Positions 19,861 to 31,709 of a stretch of DNA of 33,708 bases are shown piece by piece. The stretch comes from a bacterium. GTDB taxonomy: Bacteria; JACRDZ01; JAQUKH01. Each line of letters starts with the position of its first letter. Position 1 is the stretch's first letter. The stretch spans positions 1 through 33,708 of the forward strand of contig JAQUKH010000028.1 in the NCBI GenBank assembly GCA_028719205.1. The letters are read 5' to 3'. The notes below the pieces were generated by a model. That model ran no database searches. It saw nothing but the letters and a program-made list of their open reading frames with translations, and was not told the origin of the DNA. A program made the translations under genes and the position numbers.

Positions 19861-20382
19861 ATGGGGATTGATATGATCGGTTTGAATTTAAGAAGAGTTC
19901 GAGAACAAAATGGATTTACACAGGAAGCAATCGCGAAAAAACTTGGGGTATCAAGACAAGCTGTTTGTATGTGGGAATCAGGAAAAAGGGAAGTAAGTGT
20001 ATCGAAGCTTATAGAGGTCGCTGAAATTTTTAATATGAGCATTGATGAGATAATAAGGCCAGGGAAAGTAAGACCAAATAATAATAATTATCCGGTTGTA
20101 AAAAATAAAAAAGAAAAAGCGGACCCTAAAACCTGTTTTGAATTAGACGCGCCTTACGCTAATGAGGTTTTATTAGTGGGTGATTTTAATTCCTGGAACG
20201 CGGGGGGGATACTGTTAAAGAAAAATGAAAAGGGATTATGGAAAATTGAATTAGCGCTTAATCCCGGAAAATATGAATATAAGTTTATAGTTGACGGAAA
20301 ATGGCAGAATGATCCTGCTAATACTGATACAGCCGTAAATTCATACGGCACAACTAATTCGGTAAAGGAAATAACTAAATGA
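19861..20382 (+). CDS. XRE-family HTH regulator fused to a CBM48/AMPK-beta-like glycogen-binding domain
   Basis: N-term LRRVREQNGFTQEAIAKKLGVSRQAVCMWESG; C-term EVLLVGDFNSW...PGKYEYKFIVDGKWQNDP...NSYGTTNS. Confidence 0.9.
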   Translation: MGIDMIGLNLRRVREQNGFTQEAIAKKLGVSRQAVCMWESGKREVSVSKLIEVAEIFNMSIDEIIRPGKVRPNNNNYPVVKNKKEKADPKTCFELDAPYANEVLLVGDFNSWNAGGILLKKNEKGLWKIELALNPGKYEYKFIVDGKWQNDPANTDTAVNSYGTTNSVKEITK

Positions 20383-22590: not shown

Positions 22591-23322
22591 ATGAAACTTA
22601 AAAAAAAATTATTTTTTATAGTTTTATTTATATTTAGATTAAACTCATTAGTGCTGGGAATTGATGAGGCGGAGCTTTCGAAGTTACGGAAAGCAATGGT
22701 TGAGACCCAGATAAAGGCTGAAGGGATAAAAGATGAACGTGTGCTTCAGGCGATGTTAAAAGTAAAAAGGCATTTATTCGTACCGGAGGAATATAAAAAC
22801 ACGGCTTATATTAACGGCCCTTTGCCGATCGGAGAAGGCCAGACAATTTCCCAGCCGTATATTGTCGCTTTAATGACCGAGCTTCTGGAATTGAAAGGTA
22901 ATGAAAAGGTTTTAGAAATAGGCACAGGTTCAGGTTATCAGGCCGCAATATTGGGTGAGCTGGCGAAAGAAGTTTACACAATTGAAATTCTTGATATTTT
23001 GGGAAGACGGGCTGAAAAACTTTTAAACGAATTGAAATATAAAAATATTAAAGTAAAAATAGGGGATGGTTATTTAGGCTGGCTTGAATACGCGCCTTTT
23101 GACGCGATAATCGTTACAGCCGCTCCTGAAGAGATCCCAAAGGCATTGATAGAACAACTGGCTGAAGGCGGGAAAATGGTAATTCCTGTTGAAGATCAAT
23201 TCCCGATCGACCGTTATTCTCAAAAATTGAAATTGGTTAGAAAAATAAACGGGAAACCGGTAGTTAAAGATATTATCGCGGTAAGGTTTGTTCCGATGAT
23301 AAAGGGATTAGAAAAAAAATAG
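22591..23322 (+). CDS. pcm: Protein-L-isoaspartate(D-aspartate) O-methyltransferase
   Basis: RHLFVP, PLPIGEGQTISQPYIVA, VLEIGTGSGYQAA, APFDAIIVTAA, VRFVPM. Confidence 0.95.
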   Translation: MKLKKKLFFIVLFIFRLNSLVLGIDEAELSKLRKAMVETQIKAEGIKDERVLQAMLKVKRHLFVPEEYKNTAYINGPLPIGEGQTISQPYIVALMTELLELKGNEKVLEIGTGSGYQAAILGELAKEVYTIEILDILGRRAEKLLNELKYKNIKVKIGDGYLGWLEYAPFDAIIVTAAPEEIPKALIEQLAEGGKMVIPVEDQFPIDRYSQKLKLVRKINGKPVVKDIIAVRFVPMIKGLEKK

Positions 23323-23348
23323 CTTTAAAAATCCTGAAAATTTTGCTC

Positions 23349-23378
23349 TTGACACAGATAAAAAATAAATGGTAAAAT
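23349..23378 (+). promoter_or_regulatory. Sigma70-type promoter of the fdh operon
   Basis: TTGACA, 18 bp spacer, extended -10 TGgTAAAAT. Confidence 0.6.
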
Positions 23379-23395
23379 TATAACTCAAATTAAAA

Positions 23396-23478
23396 ATTTT
23401 ATACAACTGACGGCATAGGATGGTTTTACCATCGGGGAGTATGAAATAGAGAAAAGTATTTAGTCGACCGTCTGGGCA
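23396..23478 (+). ncRNA. ZMP/ZTP (pfl) riboswitch aptamer
   Basis: P1 TTTTATAC/GTATGAAA; ACTGACGG; P2 GATGGT-TTT-ACCATC; GGGGAG; linker; GTCGACCGTCTGGGCA; pseudoknot GACGG (23409-13) with CCGTC (23468-72). Confidence 0.9.
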
Positions 23479-23508
23479 TTCTAAAATTAGATACTCAGAC
23501 GGTTTTTT
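23467..23508 (+). terminator. Riboswitch expression-platform terminator
   Basis: ACCGTCTGGG...CTCAGACGGT followed by a T-tract; its 5' arm is the aptamer P3/pseudoknot, so the two folds are mutually exclusive (ON switch). Confidence 0.85.
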
Positions 23509-23553
23509 ATTATAGTCACAAAACTTGCGGTGTGCGGGAGGAGTTAAAACAAA

Positions 23554-26244
23554 ATGAAAACAATATCACTTATGATTGATGGAAAGATTTATTCCGGAAA
23601 TGAAAACCAGAGCGTTTTGGATGTAGCTATAGAAAATGGGGTCTTTATTCCGCATTTATGCCATGACCCCCGGCTTGAGGCTTATGGCGGGTGCCGTATG
23701 TGTATAGTTGAAATCGAAGGAATGCGCGGGATGGTTACTTCCTGCACGGTGAAAATTAAAGAGGGAATGAAGGTTGTTACTAATAACGAGCTTCTAAACC
23801 GTCATAGAGTTATGATCCTGAAGTTTCTTCTGGCCAGTCATCCTAACGAATGTATGACCTGCAATAAATCAGGAGATTGTAAATTACAGGATCTGGCTTA
23901 TCATTATAAAATTGAAAATATCAGTCCGCTGCAAAAAGAAGAGAGGTCCTTTCCGCTGACAAAAGATAATCCTTTAATAGAGCTGGACCGGAACAAATGC
24001 ATAACCTGCGGCAAATGCGTAAGGATTTGCAACGAAGTTGTACAGCGTGACGTCTGGGCTTTCGCGAAACGAGGTATTAATACGGTAGTAACAACTCCCA
24101 TGTACCGTTCCATGGAAGAATCTGGCTGCGAGTTCTGCGGGCAATGTGTTTCGGCCTGTCCTACCGGCGCTTTAACTGAAAAGGCGAGCAAGGGCAAAGG
24201 CCGTTTATCGGATATGAAAAGAGTGCGTACAACCTGCAGTTACTGCGGGACCGGCTGTAATTTTTATTTGAACGCGAAAGATAATAAAGTGGTAAAAGTT
24301 ACTTCCTGTTTTGAGGGGCCTGTGAACCAGGGTAATCTTTGCGTGAAAGGAAGATTCGGATATGAATTTATAAACAGCCCTGACCGTATAATGAAGCCGA
24401 TGATACGGAAAAACGGCAAACTGGAGGAAGTGGAATATCAGGAAGCGATCGATTACACCGCGCGGAAATTTCTTGAGTTGAAGAAAAAATACGGGCCGGA
24501 TAGTTTGGGAGGATTTTCTTCTTCACGCTGTACAAATGAAGAAAATTATGTTACTGCCAAATTGGTCCGGGCGGTTTTTGGAACAAATAATATTGATAAC
24601 TGCGCTCGGGTCTGCCATGCGCCTTCCGTCGCTGGTTTGTCCGCCTGCTTCGGTTCGGGCGCGGCGACTAATTCTTTTGACCAGATCGAAGACGCAGATG
24701 TTCTGTTTATAACCGGTTCAAATACTACTGAAGCGCATCCTATAGTCAGCCTTAAAGTAAAGAAAGCGCTGCGGAATGGTGCAAAAATAATAGTAGCCGA
24801 TCCCAGAAAGATAGAACTTGCTTATAAAGCCGAAATATGGCTCGATTTGCGGCCGGGAACAAATATAGCTCTTCTTAACGGAATGATGAATGTGATTCTT
24901 AAAGAAGGCTTGCAGAACGATAAGTTTGTAAAAGACAGGACGGAAGGTTATGACGCGTTTGTTAAAGTAGTCAGCAAATATACACCCGAATATGCTGAAA
25001 AAATTACAGGGGTAGACAGGAATAAAATAATAGAAGCCGCGAGATTGTACGCGAAGGCGGAAAAGGCGTCAATATTATACAGCCTTGGAATGACGGAACA
25101 TAATACAGGCACGCTGAACGTTATGTCCATGGGAAACCTGGCGATGCTTTGTGGCCAGGTTGGAAGAAGATCGACCGGTGTAAATCCTCTTCGCGGGCAG
25201 AACAATGTCCAGGGAGCGTGTGATATGGGGGCCCTGCCGAATGTGTTTTCAGGTTATCAGAAAGTTGATGACCCCGCTATTCGCGCGAAATTTGAAAAGT
25301 TCTGGGGAGTTAAACTTCCGGAAACAAAAGGCATGCAGTCAACAAAAATGATCGAGGCGGCGCATGAAGGAAAATTAAAAGGTTTGTTTATTCTGGGCGA
25401 GGATCCCGCTCACACGGATCCGAATATCAGCCTTGTAAAAGAATCGCTTGAAAAACTGGAGTTTCTTGTTGTTCAGGAATTATTCCATACAAAAACAACA
25501 GAGCTTGCTCACGTTGTTTTTCCTGCGGCAAGTTTCGCGGAATGTAATGGAACATTCACGAACGGAGAAAGAAGGATTCAGTTGGTAATGAAGGCGATAC
25601 CCCCGCTGCCAGGGCGTGAAAACTGGCAGACTATATGTGATATCTCAACGGCAATGGGTTATCCGATGTATTATAATAACGCGTTTGAAATTATGGAAGA
25701 GGTTGCGGCTGTATCTCCGATGTTTGCCGGTATAACTTTTGAAAGGCTGAAGGAAAAAGGTTTACAGTGGCCGATACCTGACAGAAAACATCCTGGGACT
25801 TGTACCATGTATGAAAAGGCTTTTAATTTCCCATCGGGATTAGGGAAGTTTAACGCGATCGAACATAAAGATCCGATCGAAATGCCGGATAAAGAGTATC
25901 CGTATACTTTAATTACAGGCCGTCGCCGCGAGCATTATAATAACGGTTCAATGACAAGGCGAAGTAACGGTATCATGGAGATCTGGCCTGAAGAAACATT
26001 AGAGATAAGTCCGTCTGACGCGAAAAAATTGGTGATTACCGACGGTGAATATGTAAATTTGATATCCCGCCGCGGAAAAGTAAAAATCAAGGCAAGGGTT
26101 ACTGAAAAAGCGAGAGAGGGAAGATTTTTTACCTCTTTCCATTATATAAAAACTTTGACAAATCTGGTTACTAATTCGGTTTTTGATCCCATGGCGGGAA
26201 CACCGGAATATAAGGCGTGCGCGGTCAAGGTGGAAAAAATATAA
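23554..26244 (+). CDS. fdhF: Cytoplasmic Mo/W formate dehydrogenase alpha subunit (Cys type) with NuoG-like Fe-S N-terminus
   Basis: IPHLC...GCRMC...SC [2Fe-2S], HPNECMTC, two CxxCxxC ferredoxin motifs, TCSYCGTGC, active site NCARVCH, PLRGQNNVQG, PEYKACAV; no Tat signal. Confidence 0.93.
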   Translation: MKTISLMIDGKIYSGNENQSVLDVAIENGVFIPHLCHDPRLEAYGGCRMCIVEIEGMRGMVTSCTVKIKEGMKVVTNNELLNRHRVMILKFLLASHPNECMTCNKSGDCKLQDLAYHYKIENISPLQKEERSFPLTKDNPLIELDRNKCITCGKCVRICNEVVQRDVWAFAKRGINTVVTTPMYRSMEESGCEFCGQCVSACPTGALTEKASKGKGRLSDMKRVRTTCSYCGTGCNFYLNAKDNKVVKVTSCFEGPVNQGNLCVKGRFGYEFINSPDRIMKPMIRKNGKLEEVEYQEAIDYTARKFLELKKKYGPDSLGGFSSSRCTNEENYVTAKLVRAVFGTNNIDNCARVCHAPSVAGLSACFGSGAATNSFDQIEDADVLFITGSNTTEAHPIVSLKVKKALRNGAKIIVADPRKIELAYKAEIWLDLRPGTNIALLNGMMNVILKEGLQNDKFVKDRTEGYDAFVKVVSKYTPEYAEKITGVDRNKIIEAARLYAKAEKASILYSLGMTEHNTGTLNVMSMGNLAMLCGQVGRRSTGVNPLRGQNNVQGACDMGALPNVFSGYQKVDDPAIRAKFEKFWGVKLPETKGMQSTKMIEAAHEGKLKGLFILGEDPAHTDPNISLVKESLEKLEFLVVQELFHTKTTELAHVVFPAASFAECNGTFTNGERRIQLVMKAIPPLPGRENWQTICDISTAMGYPMYYNNAFEIMEEVAAVSPMFAGITFERLKEKGLQWPIPDRKHPGTCTMYEKAFNFPSGLGKFNAIEHKDPIEMPDKEYPYTLITGRRREHYNNGSMTRRSNGIMEIWPEETLEISPSDAKKLVITDGEYVNLISRRGKVKIKARVTEKAREGRFFTSFHYIKTLTNLVTNSVFDPMAGTPEYKACAVKVEKI

Positions 26245-26258
26245 TCGTGGTTTTTGAA

Positions 26259-26327
26259 TGTAGGGGCAGGCCCCTGTGCCTGCCCAAATAATAAATTATA
26301 GGGCAACCACAGGGGGTTGCCCCTACA
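26259..26327. repeat. REP-like palindromic doublet (GTAG-type)
   Basis: TGTAGGGGCAGGCCCCTGTGCCTGCCC...GGGCAACCACAGGGGGTTGCCCCTACA; same family as 101-162. Confidence 0.85.
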
Positions 26328-26331
26328 ATAA

Positions 26332-26901
26332 ATGAACCGTTGGCGGAATATAGATGACAATTTACTGAAAGACGCAGCGCTTTTCCATGGCCGTCTGGCG
26401 CCGGGATTGTATCTTGGATTTTTTATGGTAAAAAAGGCGCGGGAGCTGCTTGGTTCGCCGGAGATGATCGACGCGGTATCTGAAACTGTAAAATGCCTGC
26501 CGGATTCCGTGCAGTTGACGACACCGTGTACGGTAGGCAACGGTTGGTTAAAGGTTTTTGATTATGGTAATTTTGCCCTGACCCTTTATGATAAAAAAAC
26601 AAAAGAAGGTGTCAGGATCTGGGTTGATTTGAATAAAATTCCTAAAGACACGCTTTTTTATAAATGGTTCACCCGCCTGGAGAAAGAAAAAGAAGGTGAC
26701 GAAGAGGTACTCTTAGGAGAAATAAAACGGTTGAATGTAAAACTATTTTCTTTCAGCCGGGTAAAAGTTGAAATTGAAAAAGGCAAACATCTGCCTTTGA
26801 TGGCATGTGAAAAGTGTAAAGAGTTATTTCCCGTAAAAAATAATGTTAATGGGTTATGTTTAAGTTGTCAGGGTAAAGGATACTGGAAAACTATTGGATA
26901 G
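26332..26901 (+). CDS. FmdE-family protein with C-terminal Zn finger
   Basis: FHGRLAPG, CLPDSVQLTTPCTVGNG, CEKC...CLSCQG. Confidence 0.8.
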   Translation: MNRWRNIDDNLLKDAALFHGRLAPGLYLGFFMVKKARELLGSPEMIDAVSETVKCLPDSVQLTTPCTVGNGWLKVFDYGNFALTLYDKKTKEGVRIWVDLNKIPKDTLFYKWFTRLEKEKEGDEEVLLGEIKRLNVKLFSFSRVKVEIEKGKHLPLMACEKCKELFPVKNNVNGLCLSCQGKGYWKTIG

Positions 26902-26903
26902 TT

Positions 26904-27728
26904 ATGACAGGTAATGTTTCTAAAGGTAAAAATTTTTGTTTTACGGATAATAAAGTAAAACTCGTCAACGGTATGATGGTGAGGGAAGAACCGTTAAGTA
27001 TTATTGTGGACGGTGATCCTTACAGTGTCCTGATGAGGACACCGGGTGATGAAGAAGACCTGGTACTTGGATTTCTCTATAGTGAAGGGGTTATCAGCAG
27101 CCCGGAAGAAATAGATTTTATTCATTATTGTTCGCAGGAAAAAGAAAAAAATTCGGTTGTTGCCGGGTTAAAAAACAGGAAAAATATAAGGCGAAAAAAG
27201 CGGGCTTATGAAGTCCGTTCAAGCTGCGGGATCTGCGGGAAAGAGGTAATTGAAGATTTAAGGAAAAATTTAAAAAATATTTCTTCAGAGGAAATTTTTT
27301 TCTTTAAAAATTTAATTAATCTTGATAAAAAAATAGTTAAGAAGCAAAAGATCTTTAAATTAACAGGCGGGACGCATGCCGCCGCCCTTTTTGACAGAGA
27401 AGGGAAACTCATTTTATTGAGGGAGGATATAGGCAGGCATAACGCGCTGGATAAGGTTATCGGGCATATCCTGAAAAACGGGATCGATTGCCGGGACAAA
27501 ATCATATTTTTAAGCGGCCGGACAAGTTATGAAATGATCCTTAAAGTGATCCGCCTGGGCGCGCCGGTTGTCGCGTCTATTTCAGGAACGACAAGCCTGG
27601 CGGTGGATTTGAGTAAGGAATTTAATTTAACATTAATTGGATTTCTGCGGGGAGAAAAAATGACGGTTTACACTCACCCGTGGAGAATTGGGAGGTTCCA
27701 TGAAAAACAAGAAAAAATCAGAAGGTAA
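26904..27728 (+). CDS. fdhD: Formate dehydrogenase accessory sulfurtransferase
   Basis: EEPL, MRTPG, GFLYSEG, SSCGICG, TGGTHAAA, REDIGRHNALDKVIG, LSGR. Confidence 0.95.
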   Translation: MTGNVSKGKNFCFTDNKVKLVNGMMVREEPLSIIVDGDPYSVLMRTPGDEEDLVLGFLYSEGVISSPEEIDFIHYCSQEKEKNSVVAGLKNRKNIRRKKRAYEVRSSCGICGKEVIEDLRKNLKNISSEEIFFFKNLINLDKKIVKKQKIFKLTGGTHAAALFDREGKLILLREDIGRHNALDKVIGHILKNGIDCRDKIIFLSGRTSYEMILKVIRLGAPVVASISGTTSLAVDLSKEFNLTLIGFLRGEKMTVYTHPWRIGRFHEKQEKIRR

Positions 27729-28218
27729 AATTAAATCAAAAGATAAATGTGGTTGCGCAGTAAGCTGTGAATCAGAAGAAATTATAAAAGGATTTTCGCA
27801 TCAGGGGAAACAATATGTAATTCCTCTTTTGCAAAAAGTGCAGGAGCAGGATGGTTATATAAGCGAAGAGACTATGGATCTTGTTTCGGAAAAACTGGGT
27901 GTTCCTGTAAGCCAGGTATACGCGATCACTACTTTTTATTCTTATTTCCGCCTGCAGCCGATAGGAAAACATTTGGTCCGTCCGTGCAGGGGAACAGCAT
28001 GCCATGTGAAAGGGTCAAAACGGATCATTGAAAAGATAAAAGAACATTTAGACCTGAAGGGAGATATAGATACAACGGCTGATAACCAATTTACAGTCGC
28101 GCCTGTGGCGTGCCTGGGAACCTGCGGATTGGCGCCGGTTATGATGATAGGGAATAATGTTTACGGCAATCTTAATGAAGAAAATGCCGGGAAAATAATA
28201 GACAGGCTGAAAAGTTAG
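27700..28218 (+). CDS. NuoE/HydC-like [2Fe-2S] subunit
   Basis: LQKVQEQDGYIS, TFYSYF, CRGTACHVKG, ACLGTCGLAP; ATG 27700 follows GGAGG. Confidence 0.9.
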   Translation: MKNKKKSEGKIKSKDKCGCAVSCESEEIIKGFSHQGKQYVIPLLQKVQEQDGYISEETMDLVSEKLGVPVSQVYAITTFYSYFRLQPIGKHLVRPCRGTACHVKGSKRIIEKIKEHLDLKGDIDTTADNQFTVAPVACLGTCGLAPVMMIGNNVYGNLNEENAGKIIDRLKS

Positions 28219-28228
28219 GGAGGAAAAA

Positions 28229-30025
28229 ATGATAAAAAAAGGAACGAAAATATATATTGGTATGGCGACCTGTGGTTTAGCCGCCGGCGGACAGGAAGTT
28301 TATGACAGCTTTGTTTCTAAATTAGGTAAAAAAGAAAGTAATGTTCAGTTAATTCCCACGGGATGTATCGGAGTTTGTTCACGTGAGGTGATAGTTGACG
28401 TGGAAGTGCCGGGAATGAACCGTGTTACCTATGAAAAAGTAAAACCTGAGATGGTGGAAAAAATAATTTCGGAGCATCTGGAAAAAGATCAGCCTGTAAA
28501 TGAATGGGTTTTTGGCCAATCAGGTGATAAAAAAGTATATCCCGGGATCGAAATGTATCAGGACCTGCCGATGTTCAAAAATCAGGTAAGGATCGTTTTA
28601 CGGAATTGCGGTTCCATTGATCCGGATAAAATTGAGGATTATATAAATGCCGGCGGATATAAGGCGATCAAGAAAGCGTTAAAAATGGGGCAGTCAGCGG
28701 TGATCGCGGAGATCACAAAAGCAGGGCTTCGGGGAAGAGGCGGAGCGGGTTTTCCGACAGGAAAGAAGTGGGATATCGCGTTACAGCAGAAATCCGGCCA
28801 GAAATATTTTATTTGTAACGCGGATGAAGGTGATCCCGGAGCGTTCATGAACCGGAGCACCCTTGAGGGTGACCCTCACGCGGTAATTGAAGGATTAATC
28901 ATAGGCGGTTACGCTATCGGTGCCAGTAAAGGTTATATCTATTGCCGCGCTGAATATCCGTTAGCGGTGAAAAGGCTGCATCTCGCGCTTGAACAGGCAA
29001 GAGAAAAAGGTTTTCTCGGGAAGAAGATATTAGGAAGTGATTTTGATTTTGACATTACGGTAAAGGAAGGAGCCGGCGCGTTTGTTTGCGGCGAAGAAAC
29101 GGCGCTTATCGCGTCTATCGAAGGCGAAAGAGGAATGCCAAGGCCCCGTCCGCCATATCCGGCGCAATCGGGACTATGGGGAAAACCGACAAATATAAAT
29201 AATGTTGAGACACTCGCGAATATTCCATACATAATTAATGAAGGCGGGGAAAAATTCGCGTCTTTTGGAACAGAAAAAAGCAAGGGAACGAAGGTATTCG
29301 CTATTACCGGAAAAATTAAAAATACGGGTTTAGTTGAAGTCCCGATGGGAATTACAATTAATGATATGATCTATAAAGTTGCCGGCGGGATGGCGACAAA
29401 AAAGAAATTTAAGGCTATTCAGGTTGGAGGGCCTTCAGGCGGTTGCGTGACGGCCGCGCTGGGTGACACGAAAATAGATTATGAATCATTGGTTTCCGTC
29501 GGGGCGATCATGGGGTCCGGCGGAGCGGTTGTTCTTGATGAAGGGAACTGTATGGTTGACACGGCTAGATTTTTCCTGGAGTTTACCAAGAGTGAATCCT
29601 GCGGGAAATGCGCGCCGTGCCGTCTGGGTATCAGCCAGATGCTTTCTATTCTTAATCGTATTTGTGAAGGAAAAGGAAAACCGGAAGATAAAGTCGCTTT
29701 AGTGCAGATCGCGGAAACGGTTAAAGGCGCTTCTTTATGCGGGCTTGGCCAGACTTCGCCGAATCCGGTTATTACGACTTTGCGTTATTTCGAAAAAGAA
29801 TATGATGAACATATCAATGAGAAAAAATGCAAGGCGGGTATCTGCGCGGAGCTTTTAAGGTTTGAAGTCGATGAAACGATCTGTAAAAAATGCGGGATCT
29901 GCGTGAAACAATGTCCGGCTCAGGCCATACAGGGCGGCGCGAAAACGCTCGCGAAAATAGATAAAAGTAAATGCACGAAATGCCGGAAATGCATTGAGGC
30001 CTGCCCGTTCTGCGCGATCTATTAA
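28229..30025 (+). CDS. NuoF/HydB-like FMN/NAD-binding subunit with N-terminal [2Fe-2S] and C-terminal 2x[4Fe-4S] domains
   Basis: TCGLAAG/GCIGVC, GLRGRGGAGFPTG, NADEGDPGAFM, GEETAL, GGPSGG, ESCGKCAPCR, two terminal CxxCxxC motifs. Confidence 0.92.
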   Translation: MIKKGTKIYIGMATCGLAAGGQEVYDSFVSKLGKKESNVQLIPTGCIGVCSREVIVDVEVPGMNRVTYEKVKPEMVEKIISEHLEKDQPVNEWVFGQSGDKKVYPGIEMYQDLPMFKNQVRIVLRNCGSIDPDKIEDYINAGGYKAIKKALKMGQSAVIAEITKAGLRGRGGAGFPTGKKWDIALQQKSGQKYFICNADEGDPGAFMNRSTLEGDPHAVIEGLIIGGYAIGASKGYIYCRAEYPLAVKRLHLALEQAREKGFLGKKILGSDFDFDITVKEGAGAFVCGEETALIASIEGERGMPRPRPPYPAQSGLWGKPTNINNVETLANIPYIINEGGEKFASFGTEKSKGTKVFAITGKIKNTGLVEVPMGITINDMIYKVAGGMATKKKFKAIQVGGPSGGCVTAALGDTKIDYESLVSVGAIMGSGGAVVLDEGNCMVDTARFFLEFTKSESCGKCAPCRLGISQMLSILNRICEGKGKPEDKVALVQIAETVKGASLCGLGQTSPNPVITTLRYFEKEYDEHINEKKCKAGICAELLRFEVDETICKKCGICVKQCPAQAIQGGAKTLAKIDKSKCTKCRKCIEACPFCAIY

Positions 30026-30047
30026 TATTTTTATCTTTTAATAATAC

Positions 30048-30082
30048 AGGGAGAATGATAAACTTATCATTCTCCCTTTTTG
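30048..30082 (+). terminator. Intrinsic terminator of the fdh operon
   Basis: AGGGAGAATGATA-AACT-TATCATTCTCCCT followed by TTTT. Confidence 0.85.
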
Positions 30083-30097
30083 ATTTTAAAATCTCTA

Positions 30098-30178
30098 AAC
30101 CCCCTTTTATTCCCCCTTATCAGGGGGATAAAAAATTTTTTTTGTTTCTCCCCTGATAAGGGGAGATCAAGAAGGGTT
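30098..30178. repeat. Second-family palindromic extragenic element
   Basis: AACCCCCTTTTATTCCCCCTTATCAGGGGGA...TCTCCCCTGATAAGGGGAGATCAAGAAGGGTT: two internal hairpins in inverted arrangement. Confidence 0.7.
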
Positions 30179-30215
30179 AGGAGTGTTAGAATTTTGCCAA
30201 AGTCGAGTTGCTAAA

Positions 30216-30770
30216 ATGAACATATTTACAATCATAATTATAGGTATCGCCTTATCGATGGATGTGTTTGCCATTTCCGTAACAAGCGGAGCCGCGATAA
30301 AGGACCTGAAGATAAATCACGTTTTGAAAATAGCGTTTTTTTTCGGTTTGATCCAGTCCGGCATGTTTCTCATCGGGGATCTTTTAGGTTTCAGTATGCG
30401 GGACCTTATTTCAGGTATAGACCATTGGATCTCGTTTTCGCTTTTGAGTTTGATCGGCGGTAAAATGATCTATGAATCATTTCAAATAGGGGATGATGTA
30501 AAAAGAGACCCGCATGACACCTTTGTCCTTATCGCCCTTGCGGTCGCCACCAGTATTGACGCCTTCGCGGTAGGATTAAGTTTCGCGTTATTAAAAGTCC
30601 CGGTTTTTTTGCCCGCGTTAATTATCGGTGTTGTCACCTTTGTGATATCTTCCATCGGTGTTCTTATCGGGGAAAAGATCGGCCATTTCTTTGAAAATAA
30701 GATCGAGATCGCCGGCGGTTTGATCTTAATAGCGATCGGGGTGAAGATCTTATTTGAACATATTATGTAA
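30216..30770 (+). CDS. mntP: Manganese efflux pump MntP family
   Basis: SMDVFAIS and TSIDAFAVG repeats, IDHWI, GGKMI, EIAGGLILIAIG; multiple TM helices. Confidence 0.9.
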   Translation: MNIFTIIIIGIALSMDVFAISVTSGAAIKDLKINHVLKIAFFFGLIQSGMFLIGDLLGFSMRDLISGIDHWISFSLLSLIGGKMIYESFQIGDDVKRDPHDTFVLIALAVATSIDAFAVGLSFALLKVPVFLPALIIGVVTFVISSIGVLIGEKIGHFFENKIEIAGGLILIAIGVKILFEHIM

Positions 30771-31037
30771 GGCTGATTTTTCTCATCTTCGAAATATTCC
30801 TTTCACTTCTTTTTTTAAAATGGCTTAATTTTGAATTTAAATATTGCCAGGTATACTGATCAAGGTATATTAAATGGAAACTGGATAACATGACAAATGG
30901 GATATTACCCAACTCGGTAAGTATAATAAAATCAAGTAGTTAGGTCATTTTTTATTTCTATTTTAATTGACCATTTTAAAACTCTTTGATATTATCCAAG
31001 AAACTATATAATAATATGTTATAACTAAGGATAATTA

Positions 31038-31709
31038 ATGAATAGTGCAATATTCTGTATAACTTTTATTTGTCTTTTTAATCCAATATCTATTTTATCA
31101 AGTGAGCTTAATGATAAAAATAAATATTCAGAAGAGGCGCAAATCTATTCTACATTTCTGGATTTCTATTATGATTCAGGTATGTATTATGATCCAAAAT
31201 TAATAATAAAATCTATTGCTGTAAATGATTCAACGTCAATTAAGAGTCTTGGGTGGAGTGAAAAAGATAAATCAAGGTTTTATGAATTACTTATCAGAAT
31301 AGCTTTTAAGAATAATAATCCAGATATTGATACAATAGATAATTTTTGGGAAACAAATAGAAATAATGTAAAGATCATTAAAGAGATTCCTTCTAAATTC
31401 AATTTAATTTATCTTTCAGAAGCAGATCAGAAAGAATGGTACATAAAATATCCTGAAGCAGTGGGAATTATATCGTTTTCACAAGTTGGCTTTAATAAAG
31501 GCAGATCTCAAGCATTTTTATATTTTGTAAATGATATAAACTGGGGTGCAGGATATATTGCTTTACTAAATAAAAAGGACAATGTTTGGAAACCGGGTGC
31601 TGAGAACCTTATAGAATTGCTTGCCGGTAAAATAGACTCTGTGATCATAGATCGCATGAATTATGGGGGGTGCCGGAAAAATATACAAGGACCACGGGTG
31701 GAGCGATAA
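31038..31709 (+). CDS. Hypothetical exported protein, probably chimeric at its 3' end
   Basis: AAGGA RBS, signal-peptide-like N-terminus, very AT-rich until ~31590, then a compositional shift. Confidence 0.55.
   Translation: MNSAIFCITFICLFNPISILSSELNDKNKYSEEAQIYSTFLDFYYDSGMYYDPKLIIKSIAVNDSTSIKSLGWSEKDKSRFYELLIRIAFKNNNPDIDTIDNFWETNRNNVKIIKEIPSKFNLIYLSEADQKEWYIKYPEAVGIISFSQVGFNKGRSQAFLYFVNDINWGAGYIALLNKKDNVWKPGAENLIELLAGKIDSVIIDRMNYGGCRKNIQGPRVER

Follow-up and report, generated by a model that had tools for sequence, protein, structure and literature searches.

A 33,708-nucleotide stretch of DNA from an uncultured bacterium (contig JAQUKH010000028.1 of assembly GCA_028719205.1; the whole stretch is called the window below) carries a riboswitch aptamer for ZMP and ZTP (5-aminoimidazole-4-carboxamide ribonucleoside 5'-monophosphate and 5'-triphosphate) directly upstream of the formate dehydrogenase (FDH) genes fdhF-fmdE-fdhD-nuoE-nuoF. 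We consider it probable that the element is a transcriptional ON switch governing this five-gene operon for a cysteine (Cys)-type FDH of the Bfu family, and that the enzyme acts as a CO2 reductase feeding Fhs. The genome of an uncultured anaerobe does not, as a rule, reveal whether formate is made or burnt or in which direction the Wood-Ljungdahl pathway runs. Because the FDHs of this family can work in either direction and the ZTP signal is known (shortage of 10-formyl-tetrahydrofolate; 10-formyl-THF), the riboswitch offers a regulatory argument for direction. A sensor of one-carbon (C1) shortage precedes the only true FDH, suggesting that this CO2-fixing bacterium makes formate from CO2 on demand, and the pairing points to a simple feedback loop at the entry step of CO2 fixation. 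The response to ZMP, the dependence of the operon on the switch and the catalytic direction in vivo are what we infer below.

A scan of both strands of the entire window against Rfam 15 at gathering thresholds returned exactly one match, to RF01750 (ZMP-ZTP), on the forward strand (Table 1). The match scored 57.9 bits (E 4.5e-07; gathering score 39), spanned model positions 1-86 of 86 without truncation and kept the conserved pocket nucleotides, and a search of the whole genome with the same model found the same site as the sole ZTP copy. A sequence-only reading of this DNA had earlier described a complete ZMP/ZTP aptamer beginning at 23396; its completeness held, with that start falling 3 nucleotides (nt) inside the match.

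The pseudoknot strands, which that reading had called covarying, are complementary: GACGG on the 5' side aligns to the consensus GGCGg and CCGTC at 23468-23472 to the consensus CCGCC, a G-C pair of the consensus being replaced by A-U through changes on both sides. Reading by regular expression (regex) of the 40 best-scoring of 68 ZTP matches from a Clostridia-class sample revealed A-T at the variable pair in 28 members, G-C in 10 and G-T in one, with one member missed by the regex; among the 39 members that the regex did match (40 fetched), 38 have a Watson-Crick pair here. The pseudoknot pair covaries across the ZTP family, as had been claimed, and the A-U form of the window is the commoner one and not special. 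A common origin of the two fdh-linked switches (the second lies in another phylum, see below), considered on the ground of their shared A-U pseudoknot, was rejected because this variant is the majority form (28/40).

The minimum-free-energy fold of 23385-23560 (−38.2 kcal/mol; z −2.46 against 200 shuffles) gathered 23466-23504 into one hairpin with the core CCGUCUGGG/CUCAGACGG, followed by U6; at the DNA level the core is listed as the pair CCGTCTGGG/CTCAGACGG, with T6 at 23503-23508. The terminator stem comprises 11 pairs, and its 5' arm is the pseudoknot and ligand-pocket strand of the aptamer itself. Since the terminator shares the CCGTC strand with the pseudoknot, the layout is that of a transcriptional ON switch, in agreement with the overlapping terminator and ON design proposed before. 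From its sequence, the element reads as a bona fide ZTP aptamer in the classical ZTP transcriptional ON design, which would be expected to bind and respond to ZMP. A sigma-70-type promoter located 15 nt 5' of the aptamer was the best of 34 promoter-like sites within 23000-31200. Assembly of metagenome DNA reads from four runs at 80% likeness yielded only short contigs of relatives, some of which span the promoter, aptamer and terminator (e.g. 23347-23508); among the listed read-derived pieces from these four runs, none joins the riboswitch to fdhF. No RNA run was listed among the sequencing runs that contain this DNA, and a single DNA run, which may be its source, contains it in full.

The genus comprises three species in the genome collection, namely that of the window (G000) and two congeners (G001 and G002). 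Both congeners carry a ZTP match (50.3 and 54 bits) at the syntenic site between pcm and fdhF, with FdhF proteins 81-82% identical to that of the window, and the gene order pcm, promoter, ZTP, terminator, fdhF is kept in 2/2. The promoter hexamers, aptamer core and terminator are conserved in both, a single A-to-G change in the congener terminator turning a U-A pair into U-G, and in all three species the aptamer, pseudoknot and terminator are either unchanged or altered with compensation, despite 18-19% divergence of FdhF.

The aptamers of both congeners also contain, within their 5' subdomain, an extra hairpin of ~28 nt (about 1530-1560 of loci L004 and L005; columns 87-116 of alignment A1), which is missing from the window copy, and both remain above the Rfam cut-off. 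Such an insertion would fit an aptamer that is a relic or senses another ligand, its pairing with fdh being accidental. We regard this as very improbable, in view of the full-model match far over the cut-off with conserved pocket nucleotides, the scores still reached by the congeners, the invariance or compensation across three species whose FdhF proteins have diverged, and the recurrence of the pairing in another phylum.

FdhF scored 871 bits against the NCBIfam FDH-alpha equivalog TIGR01591 (cut-off 666.25), and its closest solved relative was Rhodobacter capsulatus FdsA (6tg9_A, E 5.5e-221). The residues that define FDH catalysis are a metal-ligand Cys or selenocysteine (Sec) followed by His, together with a catalytic Arg; the CARVCH (Cys354-His355) and NPLRGQNNVQG Arg motifs of FdhF align to their counterparts in 6tg9_A. 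The fdhF reading frame has no in-frame stop, and the enzyme is therefore of the Cys type and not the Sec type. A substrate other than formate/CO2 for this alpha subunit is hardly credible: three FdhF-like paralogous units of the same genome have lost the FDH active site, so that the fold serves other purposes there, but the window FdhF passes the equivalog cut-off, keeps Cys-His and Arg, and is encoded in one operon with FdhD, the FDH-specific sulfurtransferase.

Residues 7-597 of the NuoF-like subunit aligned full length to B subunits from electron-bifurcating enzymes of solved structure, which are given here under their depositors' names: 9bov_B, NADH dehydrogenase (Quinone), and 7t2r_B, NiFe hydrogenase subunit B (each E 1.4e-224); 9n5u_B, NfnB (E 5.5e-220); 8oh5_B, NAD-reducing hydrogenase subunit HoxF (E 1e-216), the partner chain of which, 8oh5_C, is an FDH-like major subunit; and 7q4v_B, Iron hydrogenase HydB (E 6.7e-212). 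These alignments keep the N-terminal Cys motifs and two C-terminal CxxCxxCxxxCP motifs; clusters B2-B5, by which bifurcating enzymes differ from non-bifurcating homologues, may be present. The NAD-dependent FDH beta subunits 6vw7_B and 6tg9_B are shorter, matched at E 3.5e-117 and 6.4e-107, respectively, and do not have the C-terminal extension of the NuoF-like subunit.

In the relevant passages of Schut et al. 2022 (PMC9304861), the Bfu family is defined by a BfuB with IPR011538 (flavin mononucleotide (FMN)-binding), IPR019554 (SLBB), IPR019575 (NuoF 4Fe-4S) and IPR017896 (4Fe-4S ferredoxin-type) and a BfuC with the NuoE-like thioredoxin-like [2Fe-2S] domain IPR002023. The NuoF-like protein has PF01512, PF10531, PF10589 and two Fer4 domains (the Pfam-to-InterPro mapping is our own), and the NuoE-like protein has PF01257 (E 7.8e-48). 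The same passages describe Type 1 Fdh-Bfu, with the pterin site within BfuA, as predicted and uncharacterised, and state that clusters B2-B5 are absent from the non-bifurcating R. capsulatus enzyme. By the comparison of its NuoEF-like subunits the enzyme is of the Bfu type (NADH plus ferredoxin) and not a plain NADH enzyme; the product of the operon is most likely a Type 1 Fdh-Bfu, which would couple formate/CO2 to both NAD(H) and ferredoxin, presumably by electron bifurcation.

The closest public relatives of FdhF obtained by peptide-word retrieval (loci L027-L057 of genome contigs and L060-L099 of metagenome contigs) were mostly from Methanothrix-group archaea (46-58% identity), as close as, or closer than, a 51% identical homologue from the same phylum. 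This likeness hints at a possible inter-domain transfer of fdhF.

The genome of the window measures 2.59 Mb in 68 contigs, the window being contig C28, and is 92.66% complete; all gene absences given for it are subject to this completeness. A complete Wood-Ljungdahl cluster occupies one strand of contig C3 (~70.4-83.7 kb) and contains genes for an acsE-like pterin-binding methyltransferase, fhs, carbon monoxide dehydrogenase, acsB, acsC, acsD, a cooC-type ATPase, metF, metV (a methylenetetrahydrofolate reductase C-terminal-domain protein) and folD, as well as a second cooC-type ATPase. No fdh lies within the cluster, and the Rfam scan found no riboswitch at this locus with its fhs and folD genes; purH and glyA lie at other sites in the genome. 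A PF00384 search of the genome, with which a protein search agreed, revealed four molybdopterin units, namely the window FdhF, two units fused in a 1788-amino-acid (aa) open reading frame (ORF) on contig C9 and one unit on contig C11. MAFFT alignment showed that Glu replaces the metal-ligand Cys in the other three (RIEH, HYEH and RLEN) and that Lys also replaces the catalytic Arg in the C11 unit. As only the window FdhF keeps the Cys-His/Arg site, it is the one canonical FDH that the assembly contains. Since the C3 cluster lacks fdh and no second canonical FDH is present, the enzyme under riboswitch control is most likely the CO2 reductase of the Wood-Ljungdahl pathway and not just a side route for purine supply. 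The sequence-only reading had proposed an anabolic CO2 reductase supplying formate for C1 and purine synthesis; the CO2-reductase role is retained, as most likely, and a solely anabolic one is too narrow given the complete cluster.

The paralogous units lie in gene sets of their own. The C9 frame (G000:C9:28273-33639; locus L024, 8273-13639) encodes two tandem NuoG-fused FdhF-like units that are 46% mutually identical, with a short NuoF-like gene on its 5' side and cyclic nucleotide monophosphate (cNMP)-binding, NuoE-like, BfuB-like and cNMP-binding genes on its 3' side; G001 and G002 also have the double unit, as open frames of 1794 and 1686 aa. The set resembles a complex of the Bfu type for some third, unknown substrate. 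On C11 (G000:C11:52878-57979; locus L025, 5878-10979) a third Bfu-like set comprises NuoE-like, NuoF-like (613 aa) and FdhF-like (888 aa) proteins; a Fer4 domain was not reported for the NuoF-like protein at E<=1e-5, and the FdhF-like protein has RLEN instead of the Cys-His motif and Lys instead of the catalytic Arg.

Genes for other formate sources and sinks were then compared with this inventory. A pyruvate formate-lyase (PFL)-like protein was found in none of four genomes (G000, G001, G002 and G258, the last from another phylum), and neither the FNT formate channel nor PurT above its cut-off was found in any of the three congeneric genomes. With no PFL, FNT or PurT recognised, Fhs is the only recognisable user of formate and the window FDH its only recognisable source; of the checks named by the sequence-only reading, fhs is present in this genome, and no PFL-like protein was found in it or in its two congeners. 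The regulation favours a reductive direction, because inducing a formate consumer during a shortage of a formate-derived cofactor, with no other source or importer, would be self-defeating. The argument is regulatory and contextual.

It could be held instead that the switch is real but that the FDH is induced to oxidise formate, a THF shortage idling Fhs so that the FDH clears the surplus and recovers reducing power. The reversibility of the family would allow this, the closest solved alpha subunit (6tg9) comes from the NAD+-reducing formate oxidiser of R. capsulatus, and Bfu-type FDHs are termed 'formate-oxidizing' in passages of Schut et al. 2022 (PMC9304861). We consider such a role distinctly unlikely, since the window FDH is the only recognisable formate source, since draining formate would worsen the very 10-formyl-THF shortage that ZTP signals, and since the other inspected ZTP-bearing genomes have genes of C1 supply or use behind the switch (glyA, gcvT, pfl, purH, fhs). 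A role in an oxidative (reverse) Wood-Ljungdahl pathway is likewise disfavoured, because 10-formyl-THF would then be plentiful whenever the FDH is needed.

The CO2-reductase reading can be put as the following sequence of events. A shortage of 10-formyl-THF would stall PurH, and ZMP/ZTP would rise; the bound ligand would keep the CCGUC strand (23468-23472) paired to GACGG (23409-23413) in the pseudoknot, formation of the terminator hairpin (23466-23504 plus U6) would be blocked, and RNA polymerase would enter fdhF-fmdE-fdhD-nuoE-nuoF. Acting as a CO2 reductase, the FDH would convert CO2, NADH and reduced ferredoxin into formate, which Fhs, encoded in the separate Wood-Ljungdahl cluster, would turn into 10-formyl-THF, and ZMP would fall. 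The outcome would be a negative-feedback valve at the entry step of the methyl branch.

The pairing of ZTP and fdh was found again in a genome of a different phylum (G258), in which a ZTP element of 48.7 bits abuts the gene for an 899-aa NuoG-fused FdhF, 41% identical to that of the window, that keeps CARLCH and the IRGQNNVQG Arg motif; acsB and fhs lie together on one contig of this genome. Its expression platform is a hairpin in which the CCGUCUGGGC strand is paired to both the Shine-Dalgarno region and the AUG start codon, making it a translational ON switch. Because two unrelated small phyla share the pairing with different expression platforms, it was probably selected rather than accidental. 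This bears on a further possibility, that the FDH is a housekeeping Wood-Ljungdahl CO2 reductase which the riboswitch merely trims through leaky termination, so that the switch would reveal little of direction or of an on-demand role. The position of a sole canonical FDH alongside a complete pathway, the near-consensus promoter and the same pathway genes in phylum relatives without ZTP are consistent with that possibility, but the terminator is strong (11-pair stem plus U6) and conserved in three species, and an independent lineage with a different ON platform for the same type of gene argues for selected, consequential control; we therefore judge mere trimming unlikely.

A second NuoG-fused FDH in G258 has TGA at the catalytic position, CARY(TGA)H, and lies next to fhs and acsB, whereas the ZTP-gated FdhF elsewhere in that genome is of the Cys type (the loci concerned being G258:C18:11480-12751 and G258:C6:74920-77702, L150 and L109). 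This suggests that the ZTP-gated FdhF of G258 is a selenium-independent back-up that a C1 shortage turns on.

In a family-level sample of 151 genomes, in which the gene behind every ZTP was inspected, ZTP was present in 11 genomes (9 of 149 genera) and acsB in 19. The gene behind ZTP was fdhF in G000, G001, G002 and G258, glyA in G031, G282 and G286, a DUF436 gene followed by glyA in G217, gcvT in G040, pfl in G292 and purH in G225. Both acsB and ZTP occurred in four genomes (two genera), which are exactly those with ZTP-fdhF, and none of the seven ZTP genomes without acsB had this pairing. In the Clostridia class of genome G061, ZTP was present in 52 of 151 genomes (68 matches), an FdhF-like protein (E<=1e-30) in 14 of 150, and both in two. 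In the class of G317 (an Amorphus genome), ZTP was present in at least 5 of 151 genomes, with 27 candidates scored per genome; none of the five downstream 4-kb stretches matched the operon proteins, two containing glyA and one purH, and two being unmatched by the query set.

Retrieval by FdhF similarity gave 34 genome loci and 41 metagenome loci. It was driven by exact peptide words and excludes the lineage of the window, and is thus a poor sample for the question of ZTP-fdh pairs; 24 of the 34 genome loci are titled Methanothrix, Methanosaeta, Methanotrichaceae, Methanocrinis or Methanosarcinales (46-58% identity). No ZTP leader was found at these 75 loci, a Methanothrix-dominated sample, by a two-motif regex with Rfam scans of selected loci. 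Locus L046, flagged by this regex among the 34 genome loci and again by a relaxed version, gave no Rfam match; over the 75 loci the relaxed regex also flagged L027, where the match is antisense inside fdhF and no Rfam scan was run. Rfam scans of 12 loci, among them L100 (67% identical N-terminus, with 3 kb of upstream flank), the homologues from G003 and G004, the Wood-Ljungdahl cluster and the two paralogue loci, found ZTP only as two elements of Clostridium muellerianum.

Several of these observations weigh against a ZTP-gated CO2 reductase, in addition to the reversibility of the family and the origin of the closest solved alpha subunit from a formate oxidiser. The presence of glyA and folD means that serine could supply 10-formyl-THF, so that FDH and Fhs are not the sole possible route. 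ZTP is absent from the other three genomes of the phylum (G003-G005), though acsB is present there, and the pairing is sporadic; a canonical FdhF of G004 (51% identical) has no riboswitch, the gene before it being a 466-aa ORF taken as nuoF-like without a domain search. In the phylum of G258, ZTP occurs in one of 14 genomes, G258 alone, and its ZTP-gated FdhF is not its only FDH, a Sec-type FDH adjoining fhs. The association of acsB with ZTP rests on two independent genera, with small numbers and related genomes that are not independent. None of the 68 Clostridia-class ZTP matches lies near an FdhF-like gene, the nearest being 30 kb off in G061, and this acetogen, C. muellerianum, which has a Wood-Ljungdahl-type FDH, carries two ZTP switches before fhs and purH, not fdh. 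ZTP before fdh is rare and sporadic and is not standard in Wood-Ljungdahl organisms; of the sequence-only reading's call for a survey of such pairs, the outcome is recurrence in the congeners and in G258, and absence near FdhF in the 151 Clostridia-class genomes.

With these points in mind, we put forward only tentatively, as somewhat short of an even chance, the wider proposal that CO2 reduction under ZTP control recurs as an independently evolved homeostat of the methyl branch in Wood-Ljungdahl organisms, one that reads 10-formyl-THF charge via ZMP and opens the first step of the pathway to match. If this is true, ZTP before fdh would be a sequence-only marker of reductive FDH and of pathway direction in uncultured lineages, and the device of G258 would turn on its selenium-independent Cys isoenzyme when the Sec-FDH cannot keep up.

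The features of the operon are collected in Table 1; its domain assignments confirmed the earlier placement of the riboswitch directly upstream of fdhF-fmdE-fdhD-nuoE-like-nuoF-like by Pfam and NCBIfam.

Table 1 Features of the riboswitch and the formate dehydrogenase operon in the window
Feature	Position	Strand	Basis or remark
Sigma-70-type promoter TTGACA-18 nt-TAAAAT, extended -10 TG	23349-23378	+	11/12 positions matched
ZMP/ZTP riboswitch aptamer (pfl motif)	23393-23484	+	RF01750
Pseudoknot 5' strand GACGG	23409-23413	+	Aligned to consensus GGCGg
Intrinsic terminator (expression platform), stem 23466-23504 and T6 23503-23508	23466-23508	+	Minimum-free-energy fold
3' pseudoknot and ligand-pocket strand CCGTCTGGGC	23468-23477	+	Doubles as terminator 5' arm
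Shine-Dalgarno GGAGG of fdhF	23537-23541	+	Read from sequence
fdhF, NuoG-like Fe-S N-terminus fused to formate dehydrogenase alpha (BfuA-type), Cys type, 896 aa	23554-26244	+	Pfam, TIGR01591
fmdE-like, 189 aa	26332-26901	+	PF02663, E 3.7e-31
fdhD, FDH accessory sulfurtransferase	26904-27728	+	PF02634, E 3.5e-76; TIGR00129, 216.4 bits vs cut-off 140.9
NuoE-like [2Fe-2S] thioredoxin-like subunit (BfuC-type)	27688-28218	+	PF01257, E 7.8e-48
NuoF-like FMN/NADH subunit (BfuB-type), 598 aa	28229-30025	+	Complex1_51K, SLBB, NADH_4Fe-4S, 2x Fer4
Operon-end terminator, 13-base-pair hairpin then T-rich tail TTTTTGATTTT	30048-30077	+	Closes unit

FdhF contains the Pfam domains Fer2_4, NADH-G_4Fe-4S_3, Fer4_Nqo3, Molybdop_Fe4S4, Molybdopterin and Molydop_binding, and the NuoF-like subunit has a Cys-bearing N-terminal extension and a C-terminal 2x[4Fe-4S] domain. 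The FmdE-like protein has no NCBIfam match at E 1e-10. The listed TTG start of the NuoE-like ORF overlaps fdhD, and its real start may lie more 3'. The flanks of the operon are unrelated to it, with pcm and glycogen-metabolism genes on the 5' side and, on the 3' side, mntP, a 223-aa ORF without a Pfam match, a metallo-beta-lactamase-fold protein of the ODP family that carries a weak flavodoxin match, and a pseudouridine synthase. Palindromic, GC-rich hairpins that lack a T-run occur in two copies between fdhF and fmdE (26262-26323) and in similar form past the operon terminator (30105-30165); these may be elements of the repetitive extragenic palindromic (REP) kind or RNA-stabilising elements. 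Within the glycogen-metabolism gene group, a small protein (19861-20382) has an HTH_3 DNA-binding domain fused to a glycogen-binding CBM48/AMPK1_CBM domain and may be a glycogen-sensing regulator.

The aptamer, the expression platform and the enzyme type are all of known kinds; what is new is the target, which links the ZTP signal to the first step of CO2 fixation and adds FDH and CO2 reduction to the ZTP regulon. A search of full-text literature found no report joining ZTP with formate dehydrogenase or the Wood-Ljungdahl pathway; the rarer ZTP-associated genes tabulated in the original ZTP paper or in Additional File 3 of Weinberg et al. 2010 could include fdh. The compact ligand-controlled leader is also a candidate C1-status reporter for acetogen engineering.

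The ZTP class was assigned by Kim, Nelson and Breaker 2015, as cited in PMC7337938, and a ZTP transcriptional ON switch is exemplified by that of Thermosinus carboxydivorans in the portion of Binas et al. 2020 (PMC7337938) drawn on here. Like known ZTP riboswitches, the element of the window has a two-subdomain aptamer with a pseudoknot, and its terminator overlaps the 3' aptamer strand, so that ligand should turn expression ON. Its target differs: the main text of Weinberg et al. 2010 (PMC2864571) has purH, fhs, pfl, glyA as well as folD, the usual targets also named by the sequence-only reading, whereas the target here is fdhF. According to the same main text, low 10-formyl-THF would induce a formate-producing enzyme through ZTP-pfl, and Fhs would then make 10-formyl-THF. 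The logic we propose for the window operon is the same, and one ZTP-pfl pair was seen in G292; in contrast to ZTP-pfl, formate would here derive from CO2 reduction and not from pyruvate cleavage, and the ZTP-fdh genomes have the Wood-Ljungdahl pathway and no detected PFL.

As to the enzyme, the operon resembles Type 1 Fdh-Bfu as outlined in passages of PMC9304861, of which Carboxydothermus hydrogenoformans provides an uncharacterised example, in the pterin site in a NuoG-like BfuA, the FMN, SLBB, NuoF-4Fe4S and ferredoxin-type domains of BfuB and the NuoE-like BfuC. It differs in operon order, with fmdE and fdhD between A and C-B, and in its riboswitch control, of which those passages make no mention. 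Its alpha subunit is collinear with that of R. capsulatus FdsGBA (6tg9/6tga), 2Fe-2S domain through cap domain, and has the Cys-His and the Arg in common with it; the FdsGBA beta subunit has no C-terminal 2x[4Fe-4S] domain (E 6.4e-107, vs 1.4e-224 for bifurcating B subunits), and the same passages of PMC9304861 give FdsGBA as non-bifurcating and without clusters B2-B5. The FdhF2-HylABC complex of Gottschalkia acidurici, again following the portions of PMC9304861 used here, is likewise an NAD+/ferredoxin-coupled FDH on a BfuBC core, but unlike the window FDH it is of Type 3, has its pterin subunit apart from BfuA, contains Sec and tungsten (W), and runs in the formate-oxidising direction in uric-acid fermentation.

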